This document shows, piece by piece, positions 706-57,434 of a stretch of 64,000 bases of DNA. How positions within the stretch are numbered: position 1 is the first letter of the stretch; each line of letters begins with the position of its first letter. A program made the translations under genes and the position numbers. This DNA comes from a plasmid. Below the pieces are notes generated by a model, which worked only from the letters and a program-made list of their open reading frames with translations, was not told the origin of the DNA and searched no databases. The DNA lies in sequence record NZ_CP106961.1, one strand, 5' to 3'.

Positions 706-3279
706 GTGAAGGTGCCCCATCAACCATTAAATCCGTATACCCACAATAAGAATGTCATTTTCCCCTCAGTTGATGTCATTGAGCGGACCCTGGCTGAAGC
801 AGCAACGCTTGCAGACAGGGCGGTTTTTTCTGCGCTTACCGCGCAGCTTGAACCAGGGCACAAAGCGGCACTGGACCGTCTGCTGAGATCTGAGGGTGAG
901 CAACCCTCACGGCTGGCCTGGCTGCTCCAGCCTCCGGGAAAAATTAATGGCAAAAATGTCCTGCAACATATCGACCGGTTAAATGCGATTGAGGCGCTGG
1001 CACTGCCTGACGGTATTGCGCTTTCCGTTCACCAGAACCGGCTCCTGAAACTGGCACGCGAAGGCAGGAAAATGAGTAGCCGGGACCTGGCAAAATTCAC
1101 GGATGTTCGCCGTTATGCCTCGCTGGTTTGTGTTATATCGGAAGCCAGGGCCACCCTGACTGACGAAGTTATTGATCTGCACGAGCGTATTCTGGGCAGT
1201 CTGTTCAGCAGGGCAAAACGCACGCAAGCCGAACGGCTTCAGCAAACGGGAAAGCTGATTCAGAGTAAGCTGAAGCAATACGTTACCATCGGGCAGGCAT
1301 TGCTTAACGCCAGAGAGTCTGGTGAAGATCCCTGGGCCGCAATAGAAGACGTCCTTCCCTGGCAGGAATTTATCAACAGCGTGGAAGAGACGCGCTTCCT
1401 GTCACGTAAGGACAACTTTGACCCGTTGCATCTGATCACAGAAAAATACAGTACGCTGCGTAAATACGCCCCCCGGATGCTGTCTGCGTTGCAGTTCAGG
1501 GCTGCACCCGCCGCATTGCAGCTCAGTGACGCGCTGGACACCGTCAGAGAGATGTATCGAAAACAACTCCGAAAAGTACCGCCTTCCGCGCCAACCGGGT
1601 TCATCCCGCAAAGCTGGAGAAAGGCTGTGATCACTCCCACCGGCATTGATCGAAAATATTACGAATTTTGCGTGCTGAATGAGCTGAAGGGAGCCTTACG
1701 TTCTGGTGACATCTGGGTAAAGGGATCACGCCGCTACCGGAATTTCGATGATTATCTGATCCCGTCTGACGATTTTGAAAAATCACTCCGTGATAATCAG
1801 CTATCCCTTGCCATTCCGACCGATTGCCATGAGTACATCAAGAACCGTATGACACTTCTGGCATCGCGCCTGGAGGAAGTGAATGCGATGGCGCTGGTCG
1901 GTGATTTACCTGATGTTGATATATCGGATAAAGGCGTGAAAATAACCCCGCTGGATAATAGTGTCCCTTCAGCAGCATCCCCTTTTGCCGATTTGGTTTA
2001 TGGCATGCTGCCTCACCCTAAAATTACTGAAATTCTGGATGAAGTGGACGGCTGGACCGGTTTTACCCGCCATTTCACGCATCTTAAAAATAAACACGTC
2101 AGACCAAAAGACAGAAAGTTGTTACTGACCACCATCCTGGCCGATGGCATCAATCTGGGGCTGACGAAAATGGCCGAATCCTGTCCGGGAGTGACAAAAT
2201 CGTCACTGGAGGGCATTCAGGCCTGGTACATCAGGGATGAAACATATTCAGCCGCGCTGGCTGAGCTGGTTAATACTCAGAAACAGCGGCATCTGGCTGC
2301 ATTTTGGGGCGATGGTACAACGTCTTCGTCTGACGGGCAGAACTTTCGGGTGGGGAGTCACGGGCGTTATGCGGGTCAGGTCAATCTGAAATACGGGCAG
2401 GAACCAGGCGTGCAGATTTACACGCATATCTCGGATCAATACAGCCCATTTTACACCAAAGTGATCAGTCGCGTGCGCGACTCCACCCACGTACTTGACG
2501 GTCTGCTATACCACGAAAGTGATCTGGAAATTACAGAGCATTACACTGATACCGCTGGTTTTACGGAGCATGTTTTCGCGCTGATGCATCTGCTCGGATT
2601 CGCTTTTGCCCCAAGGATCCGGGATCTTCACGACAAGCGGCTTTTTATTAAGGGAAAGGCTGAGCGTTATCCGGGACTTCAATCTGTGATAGCCACAACA
2701 CCACTGAATCTTAAAGACATTGAGACGCACTGGAATGAGGTACTTCGCCTCGCAAGCTCGATAAAACAGGGGACTGTTACCGCATCGCTCATGATGAAAA
2801 AACTGGCCAGTTATCCTAAACAAAATGGCCTTGCAAAGGCATTGAGGGAAATCGGACGCATCGAACGGGCACTGTTTATGCTGGACTGGTTTCGCGATCC
2901 ATCACTGCGCCGACGCGTACAGGCTGGGCTGAATAAAGGTGAGGCCCGCAATGCGCTTGCACGAGCGGTCTTTATGCACCGGTTGGGTGAGATCAGAGAT
3001 CGGGGGCTGGAGAATCAGAGCTACCGGGCCAGTGGTCTGACATTGCTGACTGCGGCGATCTCCCTGTGGAATACGGTATATATAGAAAGAGCCATAGATT
3101 CCCTGAGACGAAAAGGGATCCCAATTAATGAGCAACTGATTTCTCATTTGTCCCCTCTGGGATGGGAGCACATCAATCTGAGTGGGGATTACGTCTGGCG
3201 GACAAACCTTAAGCTGGGGCAGGGTAAATACAGTTCATTACGCTCAGTGGATAGTGGTCTGTACAAAAAACAGGCTTAG
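706..3279 (+). pseudogene. tnpA: Tn3-family transposase TnpA, 5-prime truncated (857 aa remain of about 990), probably by the adjacent ISL3 element
   Basis: Long ORF whose C-terminal region has Tn3-family TnpA character. It ends inside a Tn3-type 38-bp terminal inverted repeat. The canonical N-terminus is missing and the ORF starts 22 bp after the ISL3 transposase stop. Confidence 0.7.
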
Positions 3280-3312
3280 CGTAGGATATTTTCCGTTTTC
3301 CAAGCGGACCCC
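3275..3312. repeat. Tn3-family 38-bp terminal inverted repeat (right end, GGGGTCCGCTTGGAAAACGGAAAATATCCTACGCTAAG on the minus strand)
   Basis: The sequence cttagcgtaggatattttccgttttccaagcggacccc overlaps the tnpA stop. Near-identical sequences occur at 44150-44215 and 59350-59387. Confidence 0.65.
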
Positions 3313-4342
3313 TATCTCTACGTTGCCGGTTTCATGTCTGGCGTGAGAAGCTTGCATAGCAAGCTTCTCTGATCCGCGTCCTCATTTATAGACTGCTGCC
3401 TATAAAACTGCGCTAGTGTTTTTCGTCATAGTAACAAACGAATTAATACAACCAGATTCGCACTTCCTTTACGTTTTTTAGCTCAATGAAGCCCACCGCG
3501 AGCACTTCCAATGGTCAATAAAAATTGGTCACTCCTTGAGGCTTTTTCGTAAAATAGCTCTGATTGCTTCGGCGGCAACCTGTTCGACGTCTGATTCGGA
3601 CGCACAGAATGAAATGCCGAGCCGGATTTTCTTACCCAGCACGAAAAAATTGTCAGCAAAGAAGTACTATGTGGCCTGGGAACATAAGACATGTGCTGTA
3701 CATCAACAACTTATCATTCATCATGTCAGAGCAGTCGGCAGTCGTGATCAGATGCTTGGTGCAAGTGGTGATTTATAACAGCCAAATTGTCGTCTCGGAT
3801 ATTACCTACGCTGAGATGCGCTTTAGGACAGGCCTCAGTATGTCAGGATCAGCTCGCGTGCTTCGATGCCGTCATTTACAAAAATCACCCTTATACTAGC
3901 GAAATGAAGGCAGTGCTGGCCGCAGCCAGGATGTCGATTGGATCGAACGACTCTGCCCTATCGGACGTACCGCATGCAAATTCTGTAGTTTTTGTTGACT
4001 AAGGATTATGAGTTTAACTTGCAAGTTAGACGGACACTTTTCTTTTTGGTTAAAGCCATCCTCAGGGTGAGCAATGTCCTTTTAGTCCTAATGCATTGAT
4101 ATTTATTATTAATTTACCCTTACATCCAAGTCGGATAGACATATTTTTTGTCTGATCTGCAGGCATCTGTAAAAAAACTCTTAACTTGGACGGACAAATT
4201 ACTTATAGAGCAATTCAAAACCGCCGCAGAAAGTGCCCCCTAGCATTTATTACGTAATTGATTCTAAATCTAAATGAGTCTGCGGGTTTATCACCAGAAG
4301 TTTGACCATTACAATAGAATAAATGTCAAACTGAGGTAACTT

Positions 4343-4445: not shown

Positions 4446-4508
4446 TGAATCGCCACGGGTTTAACAGACACCTCAGAGTCATTTAAGATGGCTTAAAGAG
4501 AGGTGCCC

Positions 4509-4787
4509 ATGAGCGGTAAGCGTTATCCCGAAGAGTTTAAAACTGAAGCAGTCAAACAGGTTGTTGATCGCGGTTATTCTGTTTCCAGCGTTGCAACACG
4601 TCTCGATATCACCACCCACAGCCTTTATGCCTGGATAAAGAAGTACGGTCCGGATTCTTCCACTAATAAAGAACAGTCAGATGCTCAGGCCGAGATCCGC
4701 CGTCTCCAGAAAGAGCTGAAACGGGTTACCGACGAACGGGACATATTAAAAAAAGCCGCGGCGTACTTCGCAAAGCTGTCCGACTGA
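4509..4787 (+). CDS. IS3-family transposase OrfA (HTH)
   Basis: Translation MSGKRYPEEFKTEAVKQVV...ILKKAAAYFAK is typical of IS3-family OrfA. A ribosome-binding site (AGAGAGG) lies upstream. Confidence 0.85.
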   Translation: MSGKRYPEEFKTEAVKQVVDRGYSVSSVATRLDITTHSLYAWIKKYGPDSSTNKEQSDAQAEIRRLQKELKRVTDERDILKKAAAYFAKLSD

Positions 4788-4843
4788 GGTACGTCTTTAT
4801 CCGTGACAACTCCTGTTGCTGGCCTGTTCGCCTGCTCTGTCGG

Positions 4844-5656
4844 GTGCTGGATGTTCATCCCAGTGGTTTTTACGCCTGGCTTCAGCAGCCGCATTCACAA
4901 CGCCATCAGGCAGACCTGAGACTGACAGGACAGATTAAACAGTTCTGGCTGGAATCGGGATGCGTCTATGGTTATCGCAAAATCCATCTGGATCTGCGTG
5001 ACAGCGGGCAACAGTGCGGAGTAAACAGAGTCTGGAGACTGATGAAACGTGTCGGAATAAAGGCTCAGGTCGGATACCGAAGCCCGCGGGCACGTAAAGG
5101 CGAGGCCAGTATCGTGTCACCCAACAGGCTCCAGCGACAGTTCAATCCGGATGCTCCTGATGAGCGTTGGGTAACGGACATAACCTACATCAGGACCCAC
5201 GAAGGCTGGCTGTATCTTGCCGTTGTTGTTGATCTGTTCTCACGCAAAATTATCGGCTGGTCCATGCAATCCCGAATGACAAAGGACATTGTCCTGAACG
5301 CACTGCTGATGGCTGTATGGCGGCGTAATCCCGAAAAACAGGTGCTGGTTCATTCGGATCAGGGCAGTCAGTACACAAGCCATGAGTGGCAGTCGTTCCT
5401 GAAATCACACGGCCTGGAGGGTAGCATGAGCCGTCGCGGTAACTGCCATGATAATGCGGTTGCAGAAAGTTTTTTCCAGTTGTTGAAACGTGAACGGATA
5501 AAGAAAAAGATCTACGGAACGCGGGAAGAAGCCCGCAGTGATATTTTTGATTACATCGAAATGTTTTATAACAGTAAGCGTCGGCATGGTTCTAGCGAAC
5601 AGATGTCACCGACAGAATATGAAAACCAGTATTATCAACGGCTCGGAAGTGTCTAG
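4844..5656 (+). CDS. IS3-family transposase OrfB (DDE integrase core). It is expressed as an OrfAB fusion by a -1 frameshift.
   Basis: Translation contains rve-domain motifs (HSDQGSQYTS, CHDNAVAESFF). Confidence 0.85.
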   Translation: MLDVHPSGFYAWLQQPHSQRHQADLRLTGQIKQFWLESGCVYGYRKIHLDLRDSGQQCGVNRVWRLMKRVGIKAQVGYRSPRARKGEASIVSPNRLQRQFNPDAPDERWVTDITYIRTHEGWLYLAVVVDLFSRKIIGWSMQSRMTKDIVLNALLMAVWRRNPEKQVLVHSDQGSQYTSHEWQSFLKSHGLEGSMSRRGNCHDNAVAESFFQLLKRERIKKKIYGTREEARSDIFDYIEMFYNSKRRHGSSEQMSPTEYENQYYQRLGSV

Positions 5657-5679
5657 ATTATCCGTGGCGATTCACACTG

Positions 5680-6216: not shown

Positions 6217-6547
6217 CCTGTAATGTGGGGGAATGCTCAAAATATTAGAGCATTCTCAGTGAATGATAGCCAAAATACCTTTGAAGTATACCTTTAACAC
6301 TGCATGTAACCTTGCCGAATATTAGTAACAGCCTGCCCGGAAACAACAGGAATACGATGCGATTTTACAAGCAGCCTTCTATGAGGGAAACAGTAGTAGA
6401 TGAACTGTAATTTATAATTATTGGACTGATACTTAGCATGTGTCTCAAGTTAACAAGGGCGTTCATAATGATTAGCAATGAGGCAGATAATGATATGCAG
6501 AAGGAAGTTCAGATTATGCTCTAGTACCCATTCACTAATGGCTTTCC

Positions 6548-6800
6548 ATCCATCAATTACGGTCCACAGTCCATCTTTGATGGCTTTCTATTCATCAATT
6601 ACGGCCCACAGTCCATCTTTGATGATTTTCTACTCATCAATTACGGCCCACAGTCCATCTTTGATGGCTTTCTACACTTCAATCACAGTCCACAGTCCAT
6701 CTTTGGTGGCTTTCTACTCATCAATTACGGTCCACAGTCCATCTTTGGTGGCTTTCCTAATCATTAACCACGGTTCACAATCCATATTTGATAATGTTAT
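6548..6800. repeat. Six tandem direct repeats of about 42 bp (TCATCAATTACGGYCCACAGTCCATCTTTGATGRYTTTCTAC). Each contains a 7-bp inverted repeat (TCATCAA/TTGATGA). This is a sopC-like centromere or iteron-like array.
   Basis: Read directly from the sequence. The six units are degenerate at their edges. ORF 6478..6867 is an artefact of translating this array. Confidence 0.7.
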
Positions 6801-7706
6801 AAACCGTAAAGGAACTTCACGAATTTACGACAGAAATATTTATGGAGATCCACTTTACATCATTTAACCGATGGAGTTTTTAGACGCTATGTTAAACATC
6901 CAAGTAATTGTGGAAAACCGGCTCGCTAATAAAGTCTTTCTTATATCAAATCAAAGCAGAAGTGACACCTTTACTGCGGAAAAGAGTTCTACTGCTTTGT
7001 CTTAGAGTATCCGTTTCCCTCCTAGCTATAAACTTCTTGGCATTCTCTTTTACCAACGAAAATCGCGAAGACAATCATCTACTCGTCTATGCCTGATAGG
7101 CAAAATGATAACCTGAAAACCTGAACTTTATCTTGTAACAGTCAGGTACGCCACGAAGTTACTTCGCTTAAATTCGGGATGACTCAAGCACTTTAGCCAG
7201 TATCTTTTTTAACTGTTCACGTACTGTTGAGCCTAGCTTCGCCATTCCTTTAGTGCCCTCTCATCGTAATCAAAAAATACGCCATCAGAGTTCATCCAAA
7301 ATTACACGCACAGGCTTAGGATTGCGAACACGCTCTTTCACTATCTCACGAACTCAGCATCTTCATCACTCGAAAGTGTTTTTTTGAACGGCAAGCGTTT
7401 ATTGTCAACGATATGTTCAAGCATGAGAAGAAGCGCTCAATACCATTAGGTCTTAAATTTCACCTCTACCGTTTTCTCACCTATAAGCTCGTCTACCAAA
7501 CGTACCATCTCTCCATTTTTCCTTTCCTTCAGCATTATAACCTGACAGCAAAAGTTATTCAGTGAATGTTATATACATGATTTTTTCTGTCATTTTCTCC
7601 GCTGTTCTGCCATCATCATATATCGCCGAGGCGGCTTCATCACAACCGCGATAAGACTCCACAACGTCTAACATAGCATCTTTTTGTTGGAGCCTTATTA
7701 GTCATA

Positions 7707-8192
7707 TCAGACATCCTCACTCTTAATATTTTTCAACTTCCTGATCTTTCTTGACAGTTCAATATTGTATTTATGGAAATACTCAAGCGATTCTCTATAA
7801 AGGCAGAACTTACTTTCATACTCAAAAATTAAGCGCCATTCCCACTCAGTACATTTTGGAAAACAATTTATCGAATACATTCCCGCTTTCAATGGTTTCA
7901 CACGAATTGCGCGATGCATAGCCGGGACACCTTTTAGACGCGATGCGTAATCATCCCAGTTAATAGTTAATTTCTTTGCACTACCAATATGTCCAAGTCT
8001 TGGCGCATAGCGACCAAGTTTTTCTGAATCTTGTTTTTGTACATTACTAGTTGAAATAATCTCTTTGTTACGTGTTTTCCAGATAGTCCAGTAATTATCG
8101 ATCTCATTTTTAGCTTCAGCAGCAACGCTATCAATGCTTCTGATGTTCTGCGCCCGATGTGCTTCGTACAACTTGATTAGCAAATCTTTCAT
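7707..8192 (-). CDS. Hypothetical protein (162 aa) in an AT-rich region, function unknown
   Basis: ORF with a strong ribosome-binding site (GGAGGAG) 7 nt upstream of the ATG at 8190-8192. It has no recognisable family motifs and lies between two repeat arrays. Confidence 0.5.
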   Translation of the reverse strand: MKDLLIKLYEAHRAQNIRSIDSVAAEAKNEIDNYWTIWKTRNKEIISTSNVQKQDSEKLGRYAPRLGHIGSAKKLTINWDDYASRLKGVPAMHRAIRVKPLKAGMYSINCFPKCTEWEWRLIFEYESKFCLYRESLEYFHKYNIELSRKIRKLKNIKSEDV

Positions 8193-8447
8193 GCACTCCT
8201 CCTGTATCTCAATACTATACATGAAATATGCCGACTTCCACATCGGATAGAAGAGGATTTTGGACTACACCCAGACGAGTTTGTATGAATGTTCAAAATA
8301 GTTATGACGAGTTTTGGCTCAGCGCCGATACCACTTAGGTCGTGATAGGGATTAAGATTGTTAGGTGTACGAATGGTACCATTAATAAAGTTACTTTTTT
8401 AAGTACCCAGCATAACTTCAAAAGTTTGATTAATACTTGTAACACTT

Positions 8448-8640
8448 TTCCTAGAAAAGTTAAACATAGTCATTTCATCCATGTTTAACTTTTCTAGGAA
8501 AAGTTAAACATGAGCAATTCATGTATGTTTAACTTTTTGGGTAAAAGTTAAACATATCGCAACCTTTTATGTGGGCCTTTTACAGAAAAAGTCAAACATG
8601 GTGCGTGTAAATTATGTTTTTCTTTTATCCAAAAAGTTGC
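8448..8640. repeat. Array of 4-5 palindromic sites. Each has 13-bp arms (AAAAGTTAAACAT / ATGTTTAACTTTT) around a 13-14 bp spacer. This is a putative protein-binding array (partition, iteron or operator).
   Basis: A perfect inverted repeat cctagaaaagttaaacat...atgtttaacttttctagg is followed by progressively degenerate copies. Confidence 0.7.
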
Positions 8641-9888
8641 ACATAAGCAGCAAGCTAAATCCAATCTGTTGTTAAATTAAGACAGCCTTATGTAAAAAAG
8701 TGTTATATGCATTAAAGTTAGTATTGACCTACGGATCTAACTAATTCATTAACAGTGTTAGAGGACAGGGACTACAGAAAAGTCGATTGAAATATTAATT
8801 TTTGCAGTTTTCTATTATAGTTTTCATTTAATAAAATTTAAAATTCCTTATATAGGTAAGGTTAGAAAGAGGACGCGTATAAGATGCATTTTCATTCACA
8901 ACAGATTTTATTTAAGATGTTCAGTTGTTTTATGATGAAATGTCAATGAATCAGTATTTTCAACCTTCCAGAAACCATGCCTTTGCGAGATTAAGTTAAT
9001 TAGAATTCCAATGATAAAACTTTCTTTTTAGCCTGATAATATTATAGCCATACAAAAACCCTCTCTCGCTCAAACACACACCAAGCATTTTTCTTGCACA
9101 TTGCATAACAAAAAAATATATTGGTTCAAAGAAATTTTTCAAGTGCTGATTTGTGATCATAAGATATTTTCTCTGATGAAAATATCTTTACCAGATTCAC
9201 GTAATATGGAGGTGATGAAATGTAACTGTTCAATTGTCGGCTTGATGATTGTCAGACACAAAATGGTGTTGTCTCGTTAGTAAACGCTTGGCATCCAAAT
9301 TTATTATTTTTGAGAATAGGTTATTACTTCCCTCCCCCCCCCCCGAATTTATCTGCTTATTTCAAGAAAGTACAACACAATATTATTATGTGCACCCACG
9401 AGTTTGAAATATCTTCTTTGGAGACAATTGAAACTTACGCGTTATTACCTCGCATAGTATATCTATAGTGGATAAAACCCTACGAAACAGGTATGCCTTC
9501 CATAAAATTTCCGCTTGAGGATATGAAATATTAGCTGATCTAACCTTAGATAGCGTGTGGGTAAAAAAATGAACCGCTTTGTTATGTCCTTAAGTTTGCA
9601 AGCCATCGGCAGGATTTTATTACTAGGTTGAGCGTCTTCATTTACGCGACTGAGGAATGAGGATAGAAAATGAAACTTAGTGAGGGTGCGAGTGTATTGT
9701 TACGAGCGCAACTGTCAACCTAGATACAAGTAGCAAGCAGAAAGATGAAAAGGACTCCTAATAGTAAATATATAATTTGTGTAAGTATCCTACTTAATCT
9801 AACCAGTTACAGTTAGATATTTCCTGATGTAGCCCCCTGAAACACCAGACAGTAGCTGTATCTCCAGATAAGAGATAGGCTTGAATAT

Positions 9889-10284
9889 ATGTCTAACGCT
9901 AACGCCAATTTTGAGATGACCGGGATCCTGTTAGGGCAAGAAGTCCGTAAACGTAAAACTCCTCAGGAGAAGATCGCCATTATCCAGCAGACGATGGAGC
10001 CGGGCATGAATGTCTCCCATGTCGCCCGCCTGCATGGCATCCAGCCCAGCCTGCTGTTTAAGTGGAAGAAGCAATATCAGGAAGGCAGCCTCACCGCCGT
10101 TGCGGCCGGGGAAGAAGTTGTTCCAGCTTCTGAGCTTACTGCTGCTCTGAAGCAGGTCCGGGAGCTTCAGCGCCTGCTGGGCAAGAAGACGATGGAAGTT
10201 GAGATCCTGAAAGAAGCCGTGGAGTACGCTCAGTCGCGAAAATGGATAGCGCACGCGCCCTTGTTGCCAAAGGACGGGGAATAG
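9889..10284 (+). CDS. insC: IS2-like transposase OrfA (InsC-like)
   Basis: Translation contains [48 protein letters not shown] and [20 protein letters not shown], both close to IS2 InsC. Confidence 0.85.
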
Positions 10285-11123
10285 CCCTGGTCAGCCGCAC
10301 CATGGGCGTGTCGCGTGCGCAGCTGTCACTGCGAATTAACCGTTCTGCCGACTGGCAGGACAGGCGCTGTAACCGGCGTGATGACGAAGCAGACGCTGAA
10401 ATACTGTCAGAGATCCTCGATATCATCAGCGATATGCCCAGTTACGGCTATCGCTGTGTGTGGGGCATCCTGCGTACGCAACGTCGTACAGAGGGACTGC
10501 CCCCCGTGAACGCCAAACGGCTTTACCGGCTTATGAGCGAGCATAATCTGCTGTTACTGCATGACAAACCAGAGCGGTCGAAGCGTGAACATAAGGGCAA
10601 AATCGCGGTGGCAGAAAGCGATATGCGCTGGTGTTCAGATGGCTTCGAGTTCGGCTGCGACAACGGTGAGAAGCTGCGGGTCACGTTCGCGCTGGACTGC
10701 TGCGACAGAGAAGCCATAGACTGGGCAGCGAGCACAGGAGGCTACGACAGTTCGACGGTGCAGGATGTGATGCTGAGGTCGGTGGAAAAGCGCTTCGGCG
10801 ACGGGCTGCCGACCACACCGGTTCAATGGCTGACGGATAACGGTTCAGCATATACCGCGCATGAAACGCGGAGGTTCGCCAGAGAGCTGAATCTGGAGCC
10901 GTGTACAACAGCGGTGAGCAGCCCGCAGAGCAATGGCATGGCCGAACGGTTCGTGAAGACGATGAAGGAAGACTATATCGCGTTCATGGCAAAACCAGAT
11001 GTGAGAACAGCCCTGCGAAACCTTGCAGCAGCGTTCACACATTACAATGAAAACCACCCGCACAGCGCGCTGGGATATCACTCCCCGAGGGAATATCGGC
11101 GGCAGCGGACATCGTTAACTTAA
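10242..11123 (+). CDS. insD: IS2-like transposase OrfB (InsD-like, DDE). It overlaps OrfA in the -1 frame.
   Basis: rve-domain motifs are present. The overlap with OrfA is typical of IS3-family programmed frameshifting. Confidence 0.8.
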
Positions 11124-15799: not shown

Positions 15800-16189
15800 T
15801 TATTTATCGACCATCAGCGGTACATCTTCCATTCTTGCGCCGCCGTTCAGCCGGAATGTGATAGTGATAATTTTCGGCAACGAAGTGGGTTCCAGGCCAC
15901 ACCACTTATTCATTGCACGGAGCGTTTCTTTCTCAAACACATCGGCGGGCTGCGCTGATAAGATTATGATGTTTTCCGCACACCCTTTTGTATTCACAGT
16001 GTATGAAGCCCTTACAACCCCCTCAATCCGGCCAGCCTGTGCTTTTGCAGGATAATAGGGCTGGTTCACCGTGGCGGATTTACCTGCCTTTGTGTCTCCA
16101 GGCGCATGTTGCTGGCCCGACAGTGTTTGCTTGTGAACACACCCTGTTGCCAGCATAGCCAGCGTTATAGCCATCATTAAACGTTTCAT
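15800..16189 (-). CDS. TonB C-terminal-domain family lipoprotein
   Basis: Signal peptide with a lipobox (MKRLMMAITLAMLATGC). The C-terminal part is TonB_C-like. An AAGGAAAAG ribosome-binding site lies upstream. Confidence 0.55.
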   Translation of the reverse strand: MKRLMMAITLAMLATGCVHKQTLSGQQHAPGDTKAGKSATVNQPYYPAKAQAGRIEGVVRASYTVNTKGCAENIIILSAQPADVFEKETLRAMNKWCGLEPTSLPKIITITFRLNGGARMEDVPLMVDK

Positions 16190-16353
16190 TCTTTTCCTTG
16201 ATAAAGCAGCCACCTGTAGCATCCCCAGCAAAATGAATACCGGACGTATTATTAGCAACTCGATAATAATACGTATTCATAGAAAGGTGCATGTGTGAGT
16301 ATTCCTGCAAAACTAACCATCAACCTTTAGAGAGTCTCTGGCAACCCCAACTT

Positions 16354-27346: not shown

Positions 27347-27942
27347 TTTAGCTCCAGAGAGTAGTAATCATAATCTCAGTTGATTATGAAACATTAAAAA
27401 ATAAAATCAACAGAAAGCCGACTGAATTAATGAACAATGTCGAACGGCTTCACTTCTTTATGTTACTTAAAATGAATGAACTGCGCTTGAAGAGCTTCTG
27501 AGATATTGAGGCTTGTTATACGAGTAGTAACAGTCGCATGTAATCCATACCTGATAGATGGAAACGATACTTAAAGATGAAAGACAGGCAGGAATTTACC
27601 CGGCATATTTATGATAAGGAAAAGTTGGAAATTCAAAATTAGTTACAAAATCCTTAGGGCAACTCATACAACACGCCTGGTTTAAAAAGCATCAACCCTG
27701 ACTACTTGAGAGTGTTTTGATAAGCGTGGGTCAGGGGTAAGGTTAACCCTTATATGAAGATAAACTGAGTTCAGCTTTAATGTAAGGTATTCGCTGATGG
27801 TGGCTATGGCGAGCATAATGCTGAGACAGGGCAATTTTGATCGTAGATAAATAAACGCACCCGGTTAAAGTTTTACTTACCATTGCAGTAGTAGTGGTTT
27901 ACCGGGTGCGCATATTTTATGCTCTCTGTCGGTTACTTTGTG

Positions 27943-28431
27943 TTAAGCGGATTCATTTTTGCGAATCTTCTCATTTTCACGGCTTTCCTTTAAAAGCTCG
28001 TCAATCACACGTTCCGTTATTTTTTCCACGGCCTCGCTTCTTGAGAGACCTTCCATATCCGCAAGCCTGTCTATCTTCCGCAGTATTTTCATACGCAGCG
28101 ATAAAGAGACCGCTGTTTTTTTATCTTTATCCAGAATGACGCGGCCACCTGACTCTGTGCTTTTCAGTTCGGCATTCTTTGCCAGATCATCACTCATCCG
28201 TCGCAGCGTTTTTTTATCAAGGTTACCCGGCGTGATCATCTGGTAAGAGTGACTGGCCTTGCTGTACTTTATTTCTGCTGAATAGTCTTCCCTGAGTGCT
28301 TTAAGGGCCCGTGTCAGGGTTGGCTCTGAACATTCCAGGCTGGTGATGATATCGGCGGCAGGAACCGGTTTCCCGGTGCCCAGTAAATTAGCCAGAGTGA
28401 AAATGCGGACCTGTCGCGTATTGAGTTGCAT
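27943..28431 (-). CDS. terW: Putative winged-HTH DNA-binding protein. It is TerW-like and the last gene of the ter-associated operon.
   Basis: 162 aa. The N-terminus has an HTH-like region (EPTLTRALKALRED) and the C-terminus is a charged helical region. Its position matches terW in known ter islands. Confidence 0.45.
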   Translation of the reverse strand: MQLNTRQVRIFTLANLLGTGKPVPAADIITSLECSEPTLTRALKALREDYSAEIKYSKASHSYQMITPGNLDKKTLRRMSDDLAKNAELKSTESGGRVILDKDKKTAVSLSLRMKILRKIDRLADMEGLSRSEAVEKITERVIDELLKESRENEKIRKNESA

Positions 28432-28433
28432 CG

Positions 28434-29657
28434 TTAGTTAAAGCCTGCGTCAAAAAAAAGTGGTTCAATTGCCTGAAAGATAAATGTCGTGCTCATCTTT
28501 CTGATAACCGGATAGTCTCCCAGCGCTTCCACCGGATCCACATGCTCTATCCCGGCAAAATTAATCGATGCCATCTGTGCTCTGCTGAATTTGCATGACA
28601 GGATGTATTCGTCTTCAAGATACCCGGTCCGTTTACTGATGCGCTGGGTAAAACCTGAGACCACCACGTAGTCAAAGGGTAGTGTATGCAGGGCAATACC
28701 GGCCAGGCGCAACAGGCACCCATGAACATGGCGTGCGTAATTTTCTCGCTGTACTTTTTGCGTCATGGCCTTTTCGGTGATTTCTGTACCGCGGGCATTC
28801 ACACCGTAAGATTTATCAGGCATGTCTTCTATCTCAGGCAGATCGACATCGAGCCAGACCGTGGACTGTTCAGGTTTGACTTCGAACGTCACCAGAGTTT
28901 CCCGCGGCCACTCAGTTTGCGCCAGAACCTCACCCAGTCGGGACTCAAAGAAGGCGCTGTCCATCGCAAACTGGTCGCGGGCTTCAGCCTGCGATGCGAT
29001 CAGCCTGCTTTCATGCTCCTTAGCCTCGAATTGCCAGTTGGCATACTGTTCAGCCCAGGCGGTGCGCTGCTGCTGATAGCGATGCTGGCGGAGCGTATTT
29101 TCTCGTTCCGTATCAGCCAGCGTCTGCTGCCACTGATTCCTGAGCTCCTCAAGTCGCTCTGCACGTGCCGCATCGGATTCAAACCATTTGCCAAAAAATC
29201 CTGCACCTGTGCTCTCATCCGGTTGCTCCGGTAAGGGCATTAACTCGGGTTTCGCCGGACGTACCGGCGCCGGTACCAGCCAGGGTTTCTGTCGACTGGC
29301 CAGATACTCTGTTTCCAGTTCGGACCAGCTGATGCCCCGGCGGGGATCCGGAGTCAGCTCATGGATATTGGCAATACTGCTCACAACAGACATCAGTGCG
29401 TCCACTTCCTGTTCGAGCTCCAGCCGCAGAGAAGGATCGGGTTGTGCGCTGCGGGCAGTACGTGAGCGGGCTGAGTTATCCAGTCTGGTGCGATAACTCA
29501 GCCCGGTACCCGGCAAACCCAGGTTGGCATAAGTGCCCCGGCTACCAATGGATACGGACGCCCCCCGCGGTCCTACGCTGAGACTCGGTGCGCCGTTACT
29601 TAAGTTCAGCCGTACGCCGGGAATGATGTTGATCGTTTTACGAAATCGAAATCCCAT
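28434..29657 (-). CDS. DUF4236-like protein (407 aa) of the ter-associated operon, function unknown
   Basis: The N-terminal sequence MGFRFRKTINIIPGVRLNLSNGAPSLSVGPRG is a conserved motif of this family. The central region is Gln/Glu-rich. Confidence 0.5.
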   Translation of the reverse strand: MGFRFRKTINIIPGVRLNLSNGAPSLSVGPRGASVSIGSRGTYANLGLPGTGLSYRTRLDNSARSRTARSAQPDPSLRLELEQEVDALMSVVSSIANIHELTPDPRRGISWSELETEYLASRQKPWLVPAPVRPAKPELMPLPEQPDESTGAGFFGKWFESDAARAERLEELRNQWQQTLADTERENTLRQHRYQQQRTAWAEQYANWQFEAKEHESRLIASQAEARDQFAMDSAFFESRLGEVLAQTEWPRETLVTFEVKPEQSTVWLDVDLPEIEDMPDKSYGVNARGTEITEKAMTQKVQRENYARHVHGCLLRLAGIALHTLPFDYVVVSGFTQRISKRTGYLEDEYILSCKFSRAQMASINFAGIEHVDPVEALGDYPVIRKMSTTFIFQAIEPLFFDAGFN

Positions 29658-29667
29658 TACGACATCC

Positions 29668-30624
29668 TCAGTTTTTCTGTGACAGTGGCATAAGTCTGAT
29701 AGCCTCTGCGCTTTGTTCCGGGATCATGCCATATATCCGTGCTCGTTCCAGGATGCTTGCTGCCCAGCGGCGATGCGTTGCCGGTTCGCACATCGCGCCC
29801 TGCGATTTGAATACAGCCTGAGTGGAGTTGAGGATCCGGAGCGCATCCGAATGTTCCCCAGCTGACACCTTCAGTGCGTTTTCGATAACATCAATCTGAG
29901 CGGGGTGGATGGCCGTTTTACCCACCAGCCCATGCGCCATATCAAGCGCCAGCTCACGCGCCATAATGTCATGATCGTCAATGTGCTCACAGACCGGCGC
30001 CGTCAGCGCAAAATCACGCGGACCGAATACTGACACCAGCATTTTAATCACGTAGCCCATAGGTCCGTCGTAAAGGGTCAGATTCCGCGGCCGTCTCAGC
30101 GAGACCACATTCATCAGGTCATTCCCGCCGATACGCAGGGCAATGATCCGCTCAAGGCATGGATGAGAAAGTAGCTTTTCCGCAAGTTCACGCATCCGGA
30201 CGACATCAAACACATCGTCGGTTTCAAGGGTCGGCATAAGACAAAGGTGCGTGTCTGCCATTGCCGCCCACCATTCCGGCAACGAGGCCAGAGTGAATTT
30301 TGGAAGTACAAAACCGTCAACGGCGCTCAGGTCGACATTCTGAACCAGCCATTGCCCCATTTCCGTATGTCGCGGACGAATAAACACCAGCGGCCAGTCC
30401 TGGTTACCGGCGCGTAATTTTTCCTGACTCAGGCGCTGCAGCAGCTGTCTCAGATTTTCCAGCGCCCGCGGGATATCTGTTTCGCTGACCGCGTCCTCCA
30501 GACAAATGACCAGCGAGCGAAGTCCCGGGATCTTGCCGTCCAGGATAGCCCCTTCAATATCGTAACGGGTTGCGGGCATGTACAGCGTGGCGCCAAGATT
30601 CCAGGGCGAGAGGCGATTTTTCAT
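29668..30624 (-). CDS. HpcH/HpaI aldolase / citrate-lyase beta-subunit (CitE)-like TIM-barrel protein
   Basis: CitE-like motifs (VICLEDAVSE, ALRIGGNDL). It belongs to the ter-associated biosynthetic cluster. Confidence 0.6.
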   Translation of the reverse strand: MKNRLSPWNLGATLYMPATRYDIEGAILDGKIPGLRSLVICLEDAVSETDIPRALENLRQLLQRLSQEKLRAGNQDWPLVFIRPRHTEMGQWLVQNVDLSAVDGFVLPKFTLASLPEWWAAMADTHLCLMPTLETDDVFDVVRMRELAEKLLSHPCLERIIALRIGGNDLMNVVSLRRPRNLTLYDGPMGYVIKMLVSVFGPRDFALTAPVCEHIDDHDIMARELALDMAHGLVGKTAIHPAQIDVIENALKVSAGEHSDALRILNSTQAVFKSQGAMCEPATHRRWAASILERARIYGMIPEQSAEAIRLMPLSQKN

Positions 30625-31718
30625 CAGAGCACCTTTTTAATAATGGTCACGGCCCGGTACTGGCCAAGTGCATCACCCATTTCGGTAACGATGATCCCTT
30701 TATCGCGAGCCAGGCCTACCAGTAACTCGACATCCGGATCGCTGACTGAGCGTACAAACACATGATCGGGTACCCGGCGTAATACGGCGCGGGTTGCTTC
30801 AGCGATACCCGGTTTAATCCGGTTGATGCTGTCGACCGCATACCTGTCAGCAAGGAGGGTGATCACATCACGACTCTTCTGCCACAGGCCGGTATTCGCT
30901 GCCATATTCCAGTCGAGACCGGGTAAAGCCGCGGGATCGAGTTTTTCGCGATAAGCTGCAACCGTCCCGACCAGCGAGCGGCTGCATTCGTACTCATTCA
31001 GATGTTCGCACACGACGCAGCCGTGTAACCCTTCAGTAGTCCATACAGAGCGTGAAATAAGGCCTGATACCGGCGCCCCCATAATCCCGAACGGGATCAG
31101 CCAGTCATCATCGCCTGCCGCCAGCCAGGCGCAGCCACACGGGTCAGCGAGCACCACAAGGCGGGGGTGTTCCGGATAACCGCTGCGTCCTTCCAGTGAG
31201 CGAACCAGTTGACCCGTGATCGCGCCTTTACCGGTCCAGCCATCAACGAACACAATGCCCTGTGTGCCATGACGGGATTCAATGATATCCAGGGCAGCGG
31301 TATCGATGCCGCGATCACGAATGATGCTGATCCCGTAGTGGAAGGATGTTTTTCCCATGTCCCGCAGCGCCTGATGCAGCATCACGCCCAGCGGCACACC
31401 GGCCCGGACGAGACTTGCCAGAATAATGGGTTCATCACTAAAGCGGTTGGCCAGTTCGCGGGCAAGTTGTGTTACCTCGCGTGCCAGTCGGGCCGCGCCA
31501 CGATCCAGTGCGCGTGAGAATAAATCCAGATGCCAGGAGGTAGGGGCAGGCTCCTGGCTCAGCATGTCAGAATAATGCTTTTTGCCGGACTGGATCAGCG
31601 CCTCTTTTTGGTCAACCGGCGTCATTTCCATGTCAATGGGTTTGAGCAGGAACTGGACATCACTGGCGTCGTAAGAGCCCGAAAAAGGAATGAGTGGCTG
31701 CATCTTACTGTTCTCCAA
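30624..31718 (-). CDS. PRTase-like protein (StiP-family) of the ter-associated cluster
   Basis: PRPP-binding-like motif GIVFVDGWTGKGAI. Translationally coupled to its neighbours. Confidence 0.55.
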   Translation of the reverse strand: MENSKMQPLIPFSGSYDASDVQFLLKPIDMEMTPVDQKEALIQSGKKHYSDMLSQEPAPTSWHLDLFSRALDRGAARLAREVTQLARELANRFSDEPIILASLVRAGVPLGVMLHQALRDMGKTSFHYGISIIRDRGIDTAALDIIESRHGTQGIVFVDGWTGKGAITGQLVRSLEGRSGYPEHPRLVVLADPCGCAWLAAGDDDWLIPFGIMGAPVSGLISRSVWTTEGLHGCVVCEHLNEYECSRSLVGTVAAYREKLDPAALPGLDWNMAANTGLWQKSRDVITLLADRYAVDSINRIKPGIAEATRAVLRRVPDHVFVRSVSDPDVELLVGLARDKGIIVTEMGDALGQYRAVTIIKKVL

Positions 31719-32496
31719 AAATTTTCATCGAGACGGCTTCAGCGAACTGGCTTTGACGCGGGATCCCGTACCAGCTGCAGAGCTTCATAAAGCGGTGATC
31801 GCTAAGGCTGTCACCGAGCCCAATCACCGGGAATACACCGCGCTCGGCACGTAATTTGTTCAGCAACCAGGTGACGGCCAGACCTTTTTCCACGGGGTGA
31901 GGAAGCCAGGCAACATTGTTGCTGTTACGGTGGATATAGAAGTCCGCGACCGGGAATACCGCTTCAATCTCGTCTGCAATGGCATACAGCTCATCAAGCC
32001 GTGTGCTGTCGCGGTGCTTCATCACCAGATAGACGGGCGTGCCGTCATATTCATAGTTGAGTCGCGCCCAGGCATTAATGCCTCTGGCTTCCATCATCTC
32101 TGTGATGGCACGTTGCATGGAGATAAGCCTCTCTTCGTACTGCGCCAGGCTCTGCAACATGTGCGCTTTCCAGTCCTCGTCAGGCTGACCCTGTGGGTTC
32201 AGAATAACGGCGCCATGGGTTGTAATCGCCCAAGAGCGGAAGGGGATCTGCACGCGGCTGATTTCTTCAGTGCCGCGGGCCGTCACCGGAATAAGTTCAG
32301 CCTGCTCCAGTAACCAGTCCACCAGCATGGACTGCTCTTCAGTCATGAAGCTGCGTGGCGCTAAACTTCTGTCCAGCGCTCCGGTTTTAAAGGGCTCCAG
32401 CGCGAGCTCATCCACCATTTTGCGTCGGGTCTGGAAGAGGGTGTCATCAAGGTCACTCAGGACAACGGGTTTATTCATAGCTAATAATCTCCACAC
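31705..32496 (-). CDS. HAD-family phosphatase
   Basis: HAD motif I, VVLSDLDDTLF, near the N-terminus. Confidence 0.7.
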   Translation of the reverse strand: MWRLLAMNKPVVLSDLDDTLFQTRRKMVDELALEPFKTGALDRSLAPRSFMTEEQSMLVDWLLEQAELIPVTARGTEEISRVQIPFRSWAITTHGAVILNPQGQPDEDWKAHMLQSLAQYEERLISMQRAITEMMEARGINAWARLNYEYDGTPVYLVMKHRDSTRLDELYAIADEIEAVFPVADFYIHRNSNNVAWLPHPVEKGLAVTWLLNKLRAERGVFPVIGLGDSLSDHRFMKLCSWYGIPRQSQFAEAVSMKIFGEQ

Positions 32497-33613
32497 TGGC
32501 GGCTACTCCGGCCAGCGTCTTCATCAGGTGACTGTCCACGCTGGCCGCTGGCGTCTCGGTGCAAAGCAGAACGCGATCAAACCGCTGGTGCGCAACGTTG
32601 TATAAAAAGTTGGGAATGCCAAGACCGTAGTTATCCGTGAAGGCAATGGCCGACTGAATAGCGAAGCCTGTGGCTATCGGTGATCGGGTAGTGGAACTGT
32701 AAAACGCATCCGCACCGGCCGCGGCCAGACGCTCAGCAAGCAGGAACGGTTCCCACACAAATTCACCTGTGCCCAGCACCAGCACACGTTCTCCCGGTGA
32801 GGTGGTGATATTGCGCCCCAGGTCATTAGCGGGCGCCGTCATCCCCAGTCGGCCCCAGGACTGTTTGCCGGTGATGGGGAAGTTACCGCGGGAAGTCACA
32901 TTCACCGCTGGCATCACCGGGACGGGCGCGTCCGGGAGGGGTTCCCACTGCCATGCACCACTGACCAATGACAGCGTGCGCACCGGCAAAGGACAACGCG
33001 TTTCCAGCGCATCACCACTCCAGTCGGTGAGTGTGACAGCCACAACCTGCTCCAGCTGTGGCAACCGGCCAGTATTGCGCAATGCCGCAAGGAGATTGAT
33101 GAAGGTGTTACCGGTTGTGGCTTCATCATCAATCAGAACCAGGGTTCGCGCTTCGGTCACTCTGCGGCGCATTTCCACATCAGCGGGCAGGTAGATCAGA
33201 TGATCTGTCGCATGGCTGTGCTCTTCCTTAAATTCACACAGCAGTTCACCGTCCTGAGGATGGCGCGTTGAGGTCAGGTAAACGGAATCCGCGTACTGGT
33301 GGCGAAGTTCATCAAACACGCCAGCCCCGAGACCTACCGCAGTCTCGGCCATCCCGATAAACAGCACAGGTCCGGGAACAGACGCCGGAAACTGGCGGGC
33401 CAGACGCTGATATGCCTGACGCATTGTCGAAGGGGGAACCGGAATATGCCTGCCCAGCACTTTGCTGACAAAGAGAAAAGCACGTTTCGGGTTACGACGT
33501 TCAGCAATATCAAAAAGATCGTTAAGGGACATCTCGCCCCGGGCGCGTGTAACCTGAATCGTTCCGCACGACAATGCACGTCGATAAACAGTGTCTTCGT
33601 TCAACAGTGACAT
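32471..33613 (-). CDS. Phosphoribosyltransferase-domain protein (PRTase plus C-terminal extension)
   Basis: PRPP-binding motif LVLIDDEATTGNTF. Confidence 0.65.
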   Translation of the reverse strand: MSLLNEDTVYRRALSCGTIQVTRARGEMSLNDLFDIAERRNPKRAFLFVSKVLGRHIPVPPSTMRQAYQRLARQFPASVPGPVLFIGMAETAVGLGAGVFDELRHQYADSVYLTSTRHPQDGELLCEFKEEHSHATDHLIYLPADVEMRRRVTEARTLVLIDDEATTGNTFINLLAALRNTGRLPQLEQVVAVTLTDWSGDALETRCPLPVRTLSLVSGAWQWEPLPDAPVPVMPAVNVTSRGNFPITGKQSWGRLGMTAPANDLGRNITTSPGERVLVLGTGEFVWEPFLLAERLAAAGADAFYSSTTRSPIATGFAIQSAIAFTDNYGLGIPNFLYNVAHQRFDRVLLCTETPAASVDSHLMKTLAGVAASVEIISYE

Positions 33614-33621
33614 AGTGAGCC

Positions 33622-34707
33622 TTAATTAAGACGGTTGGTGAGGTCAGTTGGATAGACGATGACATCGGTAATGGATCGCACCGTTGCAGGCTTGAAGGAA
33701 ACCATCTCGTTATCCATCACTTCATTTTTCGACATCAGGCCCAGCTGGTGGAAGGCAAACAACCCCGGCAGATTTACGCCGCTGCGCAACGTGTATCCAA
33801 TCCCACCTGACGGACGCATGTTCGTTTCAAGCAGCACTGGCCTGCCGTTGTGGTCATTACGCGTCTGCACATTGATGAGGCCGTCCGCGTTCATAGCCCG
33901 GGCACAGTTACAGGCCAGCTCGTATGCTTCGCCGCAGTTGACAAGATACTGAAGCGCACCTTCTTTGCGACGTCCCACCGCAGCAAGGACTTCACCCTTG
34001 TGCGCCAGAATATCGACAGAATATTCGGGTCCAGGCAGATACGGCATCAAAACAAGGGGGGTAAACGACTTAGCGGCGCTCAGCGCTGCAATATACTGGC
34101 CGGGGTTCACGATCCGGTTGTCCGGGTTGTTGAATACCGCCATGGAGGAGGCCTCGTCATCGAAACGCCAGAATCCCATGCCATAAATACCCGTGACGGG
34201 TTTGACACAAAGCGGAGTATCCGCAAAAGGAGGATTAGCGAGATGGTCCTGCAGCGCCGAAATCGAGTTGATACGTACAGAAGGGACGACCGGCAGTCCA
34301 CATTGCTGCATAAAGTCAGCGAAAGTAACTTTATCGTCGGCAAGCTTCAGCCAGTCAGAAGCCGTCGCGCCAGTGGTGAGCGTAGCGCCCGACGCTTCGA
34401 TTGCAGCCCGATGTTGTTCGAACCACTGACAATTTCGTCCCGTATGAACAGCATTAATCCCATGTTTCCCGATAGTGTCGAGAATGAAAGCAAGGCGACT
34501 TTCCGGGTCAGAGGGCTCGATTAGCGCGTGGTCAGCAACGGCAAGTAATTCATTACGTTCATGACGATGAGAGGCATAAACAATAATATTAAAGTTATTA
34601 ATTTTAGCGAAAGACTTCATTCCCTGAATAATATCACGCTGTGATGAAAGTCCTTCCATAAGCCAAATTTTGTTTTTCATTTTTAATTTATTACCTGATA
34701 AATTCAA
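33622..34707 (-). CDS. ATP-grasp-family ligase, first gene of the ter-associated operon, divergent from terZ
   Basis: 361 aa with ATP-grasp-like glycine-rich and C-terminal motifs (PVTGIYGMGFW, LLETNMRPSGG). Confidence 0.65.
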   Translation of the reverse strand: MNLSGNKLKMKNKIWLMEGLSSQRDIIQGMKSFAKINNFNIIVYASHRHERNELLAVADHALIEPSDPESRLAFILDTIGKHGINAVHTGRNCQWFEQHRAAIEASGATLTTGATASDWLKLADDKVTFADFMQQCGLPVVPSVRINSISALQDHLANPPFADTPLCVKPVTGIYGMGFWRFDDEASSMAVFNNPDNRIVNPGQYIAALSAAKSFTPLVLMPYLPGPEYSVDILAHKGEVLAAVGRRKEGALQYLVNCGEAYELACNCARAMNADGLINVQTRNDHNGRPVLLETNMRPSGGIGYTLRSGVNLPGLFAFHQLGLMSKNEVMDNEMVSFKPATVRSITDVIVYPTDLTNRLN

Positions 34708-35005
34708 GCTGTTAAGGCGGTTATGAGAGTCTAAGAATCTCTTTAGATGATGTCAATCATAATATGATTGTTAAATGCGGGTATTTTCAACGCTGTGACT
34801 GTGATCAGGCTGGGGATTTTTACACTTATATTTCAGTTATTTGAAAGGAATAAACACGTAGCAATGTAGCGAAAATACAGCCCTGGTTCAAAAAACCCTA
34901 AAAATTTGCTCTTGCCTCACAACTTCATCATGATATGATTTTTTACGTTAGTGGATAAACGTTATCTCTGGGTTAACTTTCTCATCACCATTTAAGGAAA
35001 TAAAT

Positions 35006-36762: not shown

Positions 36763-36784
36763 CGTCACATCAAAGGATTTAACC

Positions 36785-37240: not shown

Positions 37241-37263
37241 GTTACATCCTTTAAAGGTAAATT

Positions 37264-38304: not shown

Positions 38305-38352
38305 TCTCCTGAGAATTTCACTAATTCCATAACTAATGCATGAGGCTGAACT

Positions 38353-38931: not shown

Positions 38932-39000
38932 TAAAAGTCGCTTTTCTGTCCCCGGGCTGTTCATTCAGCCCAAACCCTAATTAATAGCAGGAGCTTAACA

Positions 39001-39576: not shown

Positions 39577-39593
39577 TAATAATTACATACTCA

Positions 39594-39621
39594 ACCCCGG
39601 TGCTGTCACCGGGTTTTTTTA
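39594..39621 (+). terminator. Rho-independent terminator after terE
   Basis: aaccccggtgctgtcaccgggttttttt. Confidence 0.7.
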
Positions 39622-39634
39622 TAGGTGTCAGCAC

Positions 39635-40294: not shown

Positions 40295-40310
40295 ACAAGG
40301 AACAGAAGCC

Positions 40311-55751: not shown

Positions 55752-57327
<1,576 letters not shown>

Positions 57328-57370
57328 GCGCTATGTTAAGCCCGACCTTTGTTTTTCTTAAAACAAATAT

Positions 57371-57384: not shown

Positions 57385-57434
57385 ATAAATGTGATGCATG
57401 CAACAAAGTGAGCCGCGCAAAGCGGCTTTAAGGA

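Follow-up and report, generated by a model that had tools for sequence, protein, structure and literature searches.

An inverted-repeat array upstream of mobI on a relaxase-less plasmid most likely belongs to an orphan IncH-type mobilisation module

We analysed a 64,000-nucleotide stretch of the plasmid record NZ_CP106961.1 (hereafter the window), which contains, in an AT-rich and gene-poor island, an array of inverted 13-mers next to a small gene that we identify as mobI. Our comparisons indicate that the array is almost certainly homologous to the origin-of-transfer (oriT) region of IncH plasmids, and that array and gene most likely form an orphan IncH-type (MOBH11-like) mobilisation module, composed of an oriT and its cognate mobI, on a plasmid that lacks a relaxase gene. 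We put the probability that the array is a MobI-bound oriT platform able to act in mobilisation in trans at roughly 0.7. The function of the element is probably conjugative transfer rather than partition or replication, and a plasmid typed as non-mobilizable could probably hitch a ride on a co-resident IncH plasmid. The two elements at the centre of this proposal are the following.

8455..8644, no strand assigned: array of eight or nine AAAAGTTAAACAT 13-mers in alternating orientation, with 18/26 bp spacing, forming four 44-bp units
7707..8192, minus strand: mobI, predicted to encode a 161-aa MobI-family protein (IncH/TraH-type; Pfam PF19456), a putative oriT-recognition factor

The array contains five exact copies of AAAAGTTAAACAT, starting at 8455(+), 8481(-), 8499(+), 8525(-) and 8543(+), together with imperfect copies at 8587(+), with one mismatch, and at 8614(-) and 8632(+), with two mismatches each; one more copy, at 8569-8581(-), is degenerate and carries four mismatches. 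Start-to-start distances between the 13-mers are 26, 18, 26, 18, 44 (spanning the degenerate copy), 27 and 18, and from this alternation the repeat unit can be defined as a 13-mer, N13, an inverted 13-mer and N5, 44 bp in total. Tandem Repeats Finder (TRF) likewise returned a period of 44 with a score of 148, the inverted arms are perfect over 24 nt, and the three units nearest to mobI are near-perfect. The positions of the exact copies and their spacing bear out the coordinates, the motif and the count of four to five palindromes with 13-14 bp spacers that an earlier, sequence-only reading of this DNA had put forward. Eight of the nine matches to AAAAGTTAAACAT with at most two mismatches in the 64-kb window fall inside the array; shuffled windows held a mean of 1.78 such matches per whole window, and nine were reached in 0 of 100 shuffles. 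The array has a GC content of 30% and lies within an AT-rich stretch of 3.6 kb (about 6.2-9.85 kb), and its multiple inverted and direct repeats in AT-rich DNA are a feature expected of a MobI-dependent oriT. Folding of the array region as single-stranded DNA gave -51 kcal/mol (z = -7.7).

Six homologous arrays, one from the window, three from other Leclercia plasmids and two from conjugative relatives, supplied 66 sites for comparison. Information content is 1.6-2.0 bits at 13-mer positions 1-6 and 10-13 and about 0.1 bit in both spacers, and the distances between 13-mers remain constant at 18 and 26(27) bp. The count of 44-bp units is not constant: it is lowest in the window, one higher in pLA-109 and two to three higher in CP107263. 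Selection thereby appears to act on the 13-mers and their geometry, spacers excepted. The apparent second place that the first megablast search gave for each record was merely a palindromic self-match on the opposite strand and was discarded. A search of Rfam produced only far sub-threshold matches to eukaryotic miRNA hairpins, caused by the palindromes, and in a scan for sigma-70 promoters sites were no commoner than in shuffles, with none convincing for mobI.

The start of the array is 262 bp from the mobI start codon (8192), on its upstream side, within the intergenic stretch that immediately precedes this MobI-family gene. The product of 7707-8192, which the sequence-only reading had taken for an unknown 162-aa protein, proved identifiable, with a match to the Pfam MobI family (PF19456) at E 9.8e-15, or about 1e-14 (55 bits, cut-off 26.6), and in identical plasmids it carries the RefSeq name 'conjugative transfer protein MobI(A/C)'. 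On genetic evidence, MobI, the auxiliary factor of MOBH1 conjugation systems (IncHI, IncA/C, SXT/R391, IncT), is credited with recognising oriT in IncA/C plasmids, integrative and conjugative elements (ICEs) of the SXT/R391 type and MGIVchHai6-type islands, and oriT directly adjoins mobI/traH in IncA/C, SXT, Rts1 and R27 (PMC5587640, PMC7449626, PMC10838148). The IncC MobI protein dimerises, binds the C-terminus of the relaxase and has been proposed, from genetic evidence and modelling, to bind oriT, and TraH of R27 has been named the MobI-like counterpart in MOBH11 systems (PMC13635750). An AlphaFold2 model of the window MobI, which is poor (pLDDT, the predicted local distance difference test score, 59; shallow 6-sequence alignment), displays long N- and C-terminal helices that are compatible with the published antiparallel-dimer model. 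In addition, MobI proteins fall into three clades, with at least 74% identity within and at most 44% between them, and each clade pairs with its own 13-mer family. This correspondence, which amounts to three independent comparisons, is suggestive of a pairing between MobI and the 13-mers.

Homologous loci are widespread in conjugative plasmids. A tblastn search of PLSDB with the window MobI returned 2,593 plasmids with 35-41% identical homologues, 1,851 of them typed as conjugative, and the examples listed are MOBH/MPF-F plasmids of the IncHI2, IncHI1B and IncFIB/IncHI1B types. In IncH-type plasmids, mobI stands first in a mobI-orf-MobH relaxase-TraD operon, divergent from an operon that ends in TrhF/TrhH/TraG, and every such plasmid examined has, 250-400 bp upstream of mobI, an array that shares the design of the window array and differs from it in sequence. 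The 13-mers read AAAAGTGACCCTATG, spaced 18/26(16/27) bp, in plasmids of the IncHI2 and IncHI1-like types and AAAAAGTACTAATGA in a Klebsiella IncFIB/IncHI1B plasmid, where the spacing is 20/25; two further loci have AAAAAGTCACCAATG and AAAAAGGTACCAATG.

The closest relatives of the window MobI (73-81% identity) were found only in metagenome and Logan assemblies, where they sit in complete Tra1 regions made up of TraG_N-TraH-TraF, two small open reading frames (ORFs), an intergenic region and then the mobI operon. This operon, divergent from the TraF/TraH/TraG operon, comprises mobI, orf226, the MobH relaxase gene (NF041494, 206 bits) and genes for a type IV coupling protein (T4CP), orf362, DtrJ, an S49 peptidase and a NERD protein. 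The intergenic region of these relatives contains AAAAGTT[A/G]AACAT 13-mers at 18/26 spacing, the flanking cores described below and about 263 bp to mobI, all as in the window. Identical 13-mers, spacing and cores in the company of a MobH relaxase (NF041494), T4CP and DtrJ were found at five loci (L012-L015 and L030). A profile search of species-representative genome contigs with the MobI alignment returned 12 loci, mostly IncHI2, and no close conjugative relative among them. The oriT of R27 was reportedly mapped, by Lawley and co-workers in 2002, to the intergenic region between the mating-pair formation (Mpf) and DNA-transfer (Dtr) operons of Tra1, which agrees with the present reading. Our literature search did not find a description of the 44-bp array of IncH plasmids; an 'oriT_HI1B' family has been proposed computationally and failed an RP4-based test (bioRxiv 10.1101/2024.01.30.577996).

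The homology extends well beyond array and gene, and two further features describe its reach.

7679..9685, no strand assigned: homology to a Tra1 oriT region, the whole relic, from blastn against L012 8417-10514
9175..9657, plus strand: remnant of the gene at the trhR position, from tblastn with a 274-aa protein of L012

Window positions 9685-7679 align with positions 8417-10514 of the conjugative relative L012 at 68.7% identity over 2111 columns, and the nucleotide homology ends 28 bp beyond the mobI stop codon. The match is to the region preceding mobI in self-transmissible elements with genes for a MOBH relaxase, T4CP and TraJ. Within the aligned stretch, 9175-9657 corresponds to residues 106-267 of the 274-aa L012 protein (33% identity, E 7e-14), and the longest ORF across these positions does not exceed 52 aa. 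In the conjugative relatives, the intact counterpart is transcribed divergently from mobI, at the position of trhR in R27, and the two small divergent ORFs of these relatives sit where R27 has trhR and trhY; in R27 itself, traH (R0122) is next to trhR (R0123) (PMC7366339). The description of 8.7-9.85 kb as non-coding holds insofar as 9175-9657 contains no intact ORF, but this stretch is the remnant of a decayed gene. Because of the 7679-9685 homology and the decayed trhR-like copy, the AT-rich, gene-poor island is a relic of an IncH-like Tra1 region in which mobI alone survives. A homopolymeric C-rich tract, CCCTCCCCCCCCCCCG, lies at 9335-9356 within the decayed trhR-like region, and may be a slippage-prone site or mere part of the decay.

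Conserved short elements flank the array on both sides.

8386..8398, no strand assigned: compact palindrome TAAAGTTACTTTT of the AAAAGTWACTTTT type, lying between the array and mobI, its sole match in the window
8434..8449, plus strand: 16-nt core TACTTGTAACACTTTT, bordering the array on the mobI side; candidate element for relaxase recognition or the nic region
8696..8711, minus strand: inverted, degenerate copy of the core, TGCATATAACACTTTT, on the far side of the array
8751..8762, minus strand: third, weaker core-like copy, TCTAACACTGTT, as read from the sequence

Palindromes of the AAAAGTWACTTTT type are also present in the mobI-upstream regions of IncHI2, L012-type and Klebsiella-type plasmids. 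The core TACTTGTAACACTTTT is identical in Leclercia-type loci, in IncHI2 plasmids (L006, L037) and in an IncHI1-like plasmid (L007), despite their differing array 13-mers, and is the sole significant match (E about 1e-4) between intergenic regions that are otherwise unalignable. On this conservation we infer that the core could be a relaxase-recognition or nic-region element. The copy at 8696-8711 has the position and strand of the one core that IncHI2 plasmids possess, and equivalents of the weaker copy at 8751-8762 occur in L004, L005 and L012.

We also examined the plasmid that carries the module. Four plasmids, from Leclercia adecarboxylata, Leclercia sp. and Enterobacter mori, match this region of the window at 99.9-100% identity; among them is the 178-kb pE61_002 (NZ_CP042495.1), with which the window is collinear except for differences in insertion sequences (IS). 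Three further plasmids are about 90% identical to the region. All seven belong to rep_cluster_2218 and are typed as non-mobilizable by MOB-suite, a typing that holds for all 9 related plasmids. The sequence-only reading had proposed known Klebsiella replicon types for comparison; the hosts of the plasmid are Leclercia and Enterobacter rather than Klebsiella. The full annotation of pE61_002 lists no relaxase, T4CP or type IV secretion system (T4SS) genes, and a tblastn search with all 15 Tra1 proteins of L012 against the window and the plasmid found, apart from MobI, just two remnants, that of the trhR-like gene and, at a second locus outside the window, that of the NERD-domain gene; for relaxases, this sequence search covered the IncH type, and other types were judged from annotation and MOB-suite typing.

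The plasmid has its own centromere and origin, which bears on two alternative readings of the array. In the first, the main suggestion of the sequence-only reading, a ParB/KorB/ParR-type protein would bind it as a centromere of the parS, sopC or parC-like kind. The tandem, phased units of about 43-44 bp, each with a palindromic protein-binding site, do recall sopC of the F plasmid, which consists of 43-bp units each with a palindromic binding site, and the plasmid encodes two winged helix-turn-helix (wHTH) 'DNA-binding protein' paralogues, one of them 1.5 kb beyond mobI. However, the likeness to sopC is a resemblance only, since the window array lacks adjacent partition genes and each of its units consists of two long half-sites in alternating 18/26 spacing. 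Moreover, a complete sopA-sopB-sopC set is present about 38 kb from the array (pE61_002 record 1526-4124), with sopC (3721-4124) directly following sopB and made up of 15.5 tandem 26-bp repeats that carry the SopB-box palindrome TGGGACCGTGGTCCCA. No parA-parB or parM-parR operon of the kind that accompanies a ParABS/SopABC centromere, and no ParA/ParM gene of any sort, lies beside the array or beside the homologous arrays in the loci examined; in the conjugative relatives the array sits inside Tra1, between transfer operons, and in the window the wHTH gene is split by an IS. We regard the centromere reading as highly improbable.

The second of these readings, a replication origin or iteron set, draws on the AT-rich, repeat-bearing character of the region and is more improbable still. 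The repB gene lies at the record origin, again about 38 kb from the array, with 21-22-bp GGTGTGTCATAACATGCAA direct iterons in five copies upstream and inverted copies downstream (pE61_002 177972-178099 / 862-1132). An iteron origin has direct repeats of about 17-22 bp beside an initiator gene, whereas the repeats of the array are inverted and no rep gene is found in its neighbourhood, and plasmids whose replicons are unrelated (IncHI2A, IncHI1B, IncFIB) have homologous arrays in their Tra1 regions. With sopC and the iterons elsewhere, the centromere and origin readings are therefore rejected for this replicon; both elements also serve as positive controls, showing the appearance of a true centromere and origin on this plasmid. 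The sequence-only reading had envisaged a loading site for a dimeric DNA-binding protein, to be compared with known oriV and parS sites. This general idea is probably right, and the neighbouring ORF belongs to the MobI family, but the plasmid's own sopC and RepB iterons map away from the array, a centromere or origin was not borne out, and a multi-operator is disfavoured for the reasons given below.

A second array of the same kind is present outside the window, at positions 16139-16327 of the pE61_002 record, and one of the same type occurs in pLEC-000f (L004 6204-6437). It consists of nine to eleven AAAAGTT[A/G]AACAT 13-mers at 18/26 spacing, with the same flanking cores as the window array. 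Beside it lie just two gene remnants, an N-terminal one of mobI (residues 1-42) and another of the NERD-domain gene found at the end of the Tra1 operon, and this second array is an orphan array without a cognate protein gene. Strains E61 and E1 carry the orphan plasmid together with a 357.5-kb IncHI2A/MOBH/MPF-F plasmid, named pE61_001 in E61, whose Tra1 region is complete (L037, NZ_CP042494.1 215000-264999). Upstream of its mobI, pE61_001 has seven IncHI2-type 13-mers and the identical 16-nt core TACTTGTAACACTTTT, and no Leclercia-type 13-mers. By analogy with known helper-dependent elements, this co-resident IncHI2A plasmid is a candidate helper for the orphan module. It also carries an intact relBE about 21 kb from its mobI.

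We propose the following model for the orphan oriT-mobI module. The genes for relaxase, coupling protein and type IV secretion would have been lost by the carrier plasmid, or never been present. MobI dimers encoded by the adjacent gene would bind the inverted 13-mers, 18 and 26 bp apart in phased 44-bp units, and so build up an ordered complex of protein and DNA. The complex would, by analogy with IncC MobI, recruit a MOBH relaxase that a co-resident conjugative plasmid of IncH-like type provides in trans; this enzyme would nick nearby, possibly at or beside the core TACTTGTAACACTTTT, and the plasmid would be exported via the MPF-F apparatus of the helper. In this model the binding of the 13-mers by MobI, the position of nic, a working helper and transfer itself are inferred.

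One competing explanation concerns transcription. TrhR/TrhY, HtdA or some other regulator, rather than MobI, could bind the array as a set of operator or activator sites serving two divergent promoters of IncH plasmids, H (traH/mobI) and R (trhR-trhY), in which case the array would be left over here and serve at most in autoregulation of mobI. In the conjugative relatives the array does sit between divergent operons; in R27, TrhR/TrhY activate the H operon through binding sites that are not known (PMC7366339), and the IncC oriT overlaps the mobI promoters (PMC5587640). TrhR/TrhY also activate the F operon, yet neither the stretch upstream of the F operon nor any other part of the Tra1 loci surveyed (12-50 kb each) holds a copy of the motif, a search that covered Tra1 loci, with the Tra2 operons (AC, Z) outside it. 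In addition, the Leclercia trhR-like gene has decayed while the 13-mers were kept and the spacers diverged, and the second array persists without an intact neighbouring gene to regulate. Because the motif is absent at the F operon, sites are retained beside a dead trhR-like gene and the second array has no target gene, we disfavour the operator explanation and consider it unlikely.

The array could instead be a non-functional relic of the decaying Tra1 region, not yet eroded, with both mobI and array idle for the plasmid. The surroundings are indeed a gene graveyard: mobI, the sole intact gene of the relic region, is flanked by the trhR-like remnant on one side and a decayed relBE module on the other, IS elements have inserted nearby, the distal array unit is degenerate and at the second locus of the same plasmid mobI is already dead. 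Against this, mobI is full-length, with a ratio of nonsynonymous to synonymous substitutions (dN/dS) of 0.10-0.19 that includes the orphan copies, among which the value rests on 9-13 substitutions, and the gene is under purifying selection. The spacers are near-random between arrays while 13-mers and spacing stay, and the module is kept in seven plasmids from three countries (Australia, USA and China) and in one metagenome contig. An idle relic is in our judgement also an improbable account of the module.

Among described systems, the oriT-traH(mobI) region of IncHI plasmids (R27 of IncHI1 and R478-type IncHI2; MOBH11, MPF-F) is the closest in sequence. Shared features are a MobI-family gene (35-42% identity, PF19456), inverted 13-15-mers beginning AAAAGT at 18/26 bp with a 44-bp period upstream of mobI, the identical core TACTTGTAACACTTTT, the AAAAGTWACTTTT palindrome and a divergent gene at the trhR position, which is a remnant in the window. 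In contrast to the IncHI regions, the variable part of the 13-mer is GTTAAACAT against GTGACCCTATG, the window module is an orphan without orf226, relaxase, T4CP, TraJ and Mpf genes downstream, and it has an inverted core at the mobI-proximal edge besides the distal one. The oriT-mobI regions of IncA/C and SXT/R391 elements (MOBH12) are similar in having an AT-rich oriT upstream of a MobI-family gene that is essential for its recognition, with MobI recruiting TraI (PMC5587640, PMC13635750). Although both the IncC and the window MobI match the Pfam family, pairwise BLASTP detected no similarity between them, and the IncC oriT (about 150 bp) differs in that it abuts mobI and is built of 4-7-bp inverted repeats and overlapping 14-bp direct repeats, without a 44-bp palindrome array. 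We rejected an IncA/C-type assignment, as implied by the RefSeq name 'MobI(A/C)', because IncC shares neither the array nor pairwise protein similarity.

In functional terms, the closest analogue of the proposed module appears to be the MGIVchHai6-type islands, which are relaxase-less, carry their own MobI and upstream oriT, and depend on TraI, TraD, TraJ and the T4SS of a helper (PMC7449626). They differ from it in being integrative, with int/xis, AcaCD-responsive promoters, a 49-bp minimal oriT and IncC helpers, whereas the window module, known here from sequence alone, resides on an autonomously replicating plasmid of 100-220 kb and has IncH-type sequences. Relaxase-less 'pOriT' plasmids (Ares-Arroyo et al.; PMC10123127; bioRxiv 10.1101/2024.01.30.577996) similarly lack conjugation proteins and carry an oriT related to those of conjugative plasmids; unlike them, the window plasmid also retains the accessory specificity factor MobI, and its oriT type is one that MOB-suite does not recognise.

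Several observations weigh against the proposal of an orphan oriT-mobI module. The experimentally dissected MobI-type oriTs (IncC, MGIVchHai6) abut mobI and contain short inverted repeats and 14-bp direct repeats (PMC5587640, PMC7449626), and the window, with a 44-bp palindrome array some 260 bp from mobI, is unlike them. That the oriT fragment of R27 is this intergenic region rests on secondary statements. The covariation of MobI with the 13-mers would hold equally for any linked gene, and the mobI-distal unit of the array is degenerate. PLSDB contained no plasmid with a 60-95% identical MobI, and the close conjugative relatives are known only from metagenome and Logan contigs, with no typed reference plasmid. 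Finally, helper compatibility is uncertain because the IncHI2 MobI is only 42% identical and its 13-mers differ.

A broader hypothesis goes further, and we offer it tentatively, as a possibility that we would not favour at present. Throughout the IncH-type (MOBH11) systems, the 44-bp-phased AAAAGT-N7 array might be the platform on which MobI/TraH is loaded and which determines oriT specificity, a role not previously described, with the separate 16-nt core TACTTGTAACACTTTT used by the relaxase, and the Leclercia/Enterobacter metal-resistance megaplasmids might be 'adaptor hitchers'. Their own MobI and array would then recruit the heterologous relaxase of a co-resident IncHI2 plasmid to the shared core, leading to transfer, and orphan arrays without mobI, such as that at the second locus, would be parasites of this system. 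IncHI plasmids have a major part in carrying resistance to multiple drugs, colistin (mcr) and heavy metals, and their oriT anatomy and its recognition by MobI/TraH have barely been described. The locus and the comparison yield a concrete, testable model of 13-mer half-sites, a fixed 18/26-bp geometry and a conserved core. If the oriT-plus-MobI module retained intact in these 93-223-kb Leclercia/Enterobacter plasmids, which carry ter, sil/pco, ars and mer and are typed as non-mobilizable, is functional, the mobility of such relaxase-less plasmids would be underestimated.

Further observations concern the surroundings of the module. Six tandem 42-bp direct repeats (87% match, TRF score 354) at 6538-6792 create a probably spurious repetitive ORF of 129 aa (6478-6867), and are found only in the same small group of Leclercia/Enterobacter plasmids. 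Between these repeats and mobI, 6937-7437 contains no intact ORF and is a decayed relBE; many large plasmids have relE/relB toxin-antitoxin loci that are about 79% identical to it in nucleotide sequence. An IS3-family element at 4449-5671, absent from pE61_002, splits the gene for a 213-aa wHTH 'DNA-binding protein', which is syntenic with mobI in related plasmids and has a paralogue at pE61_002 57004-57624. The wider plasmid carries sil/pco, ars and mer clusters and H-NS-family genes, and a tellurite-resistance (ter) cluster with terW and ATP-grasp/PRTase genes occupies about 27940-41580 of the window. Such ter clusters are typical cargo of IncHI2 plasmids, and its presence fits a shared history with IncH plasmids.

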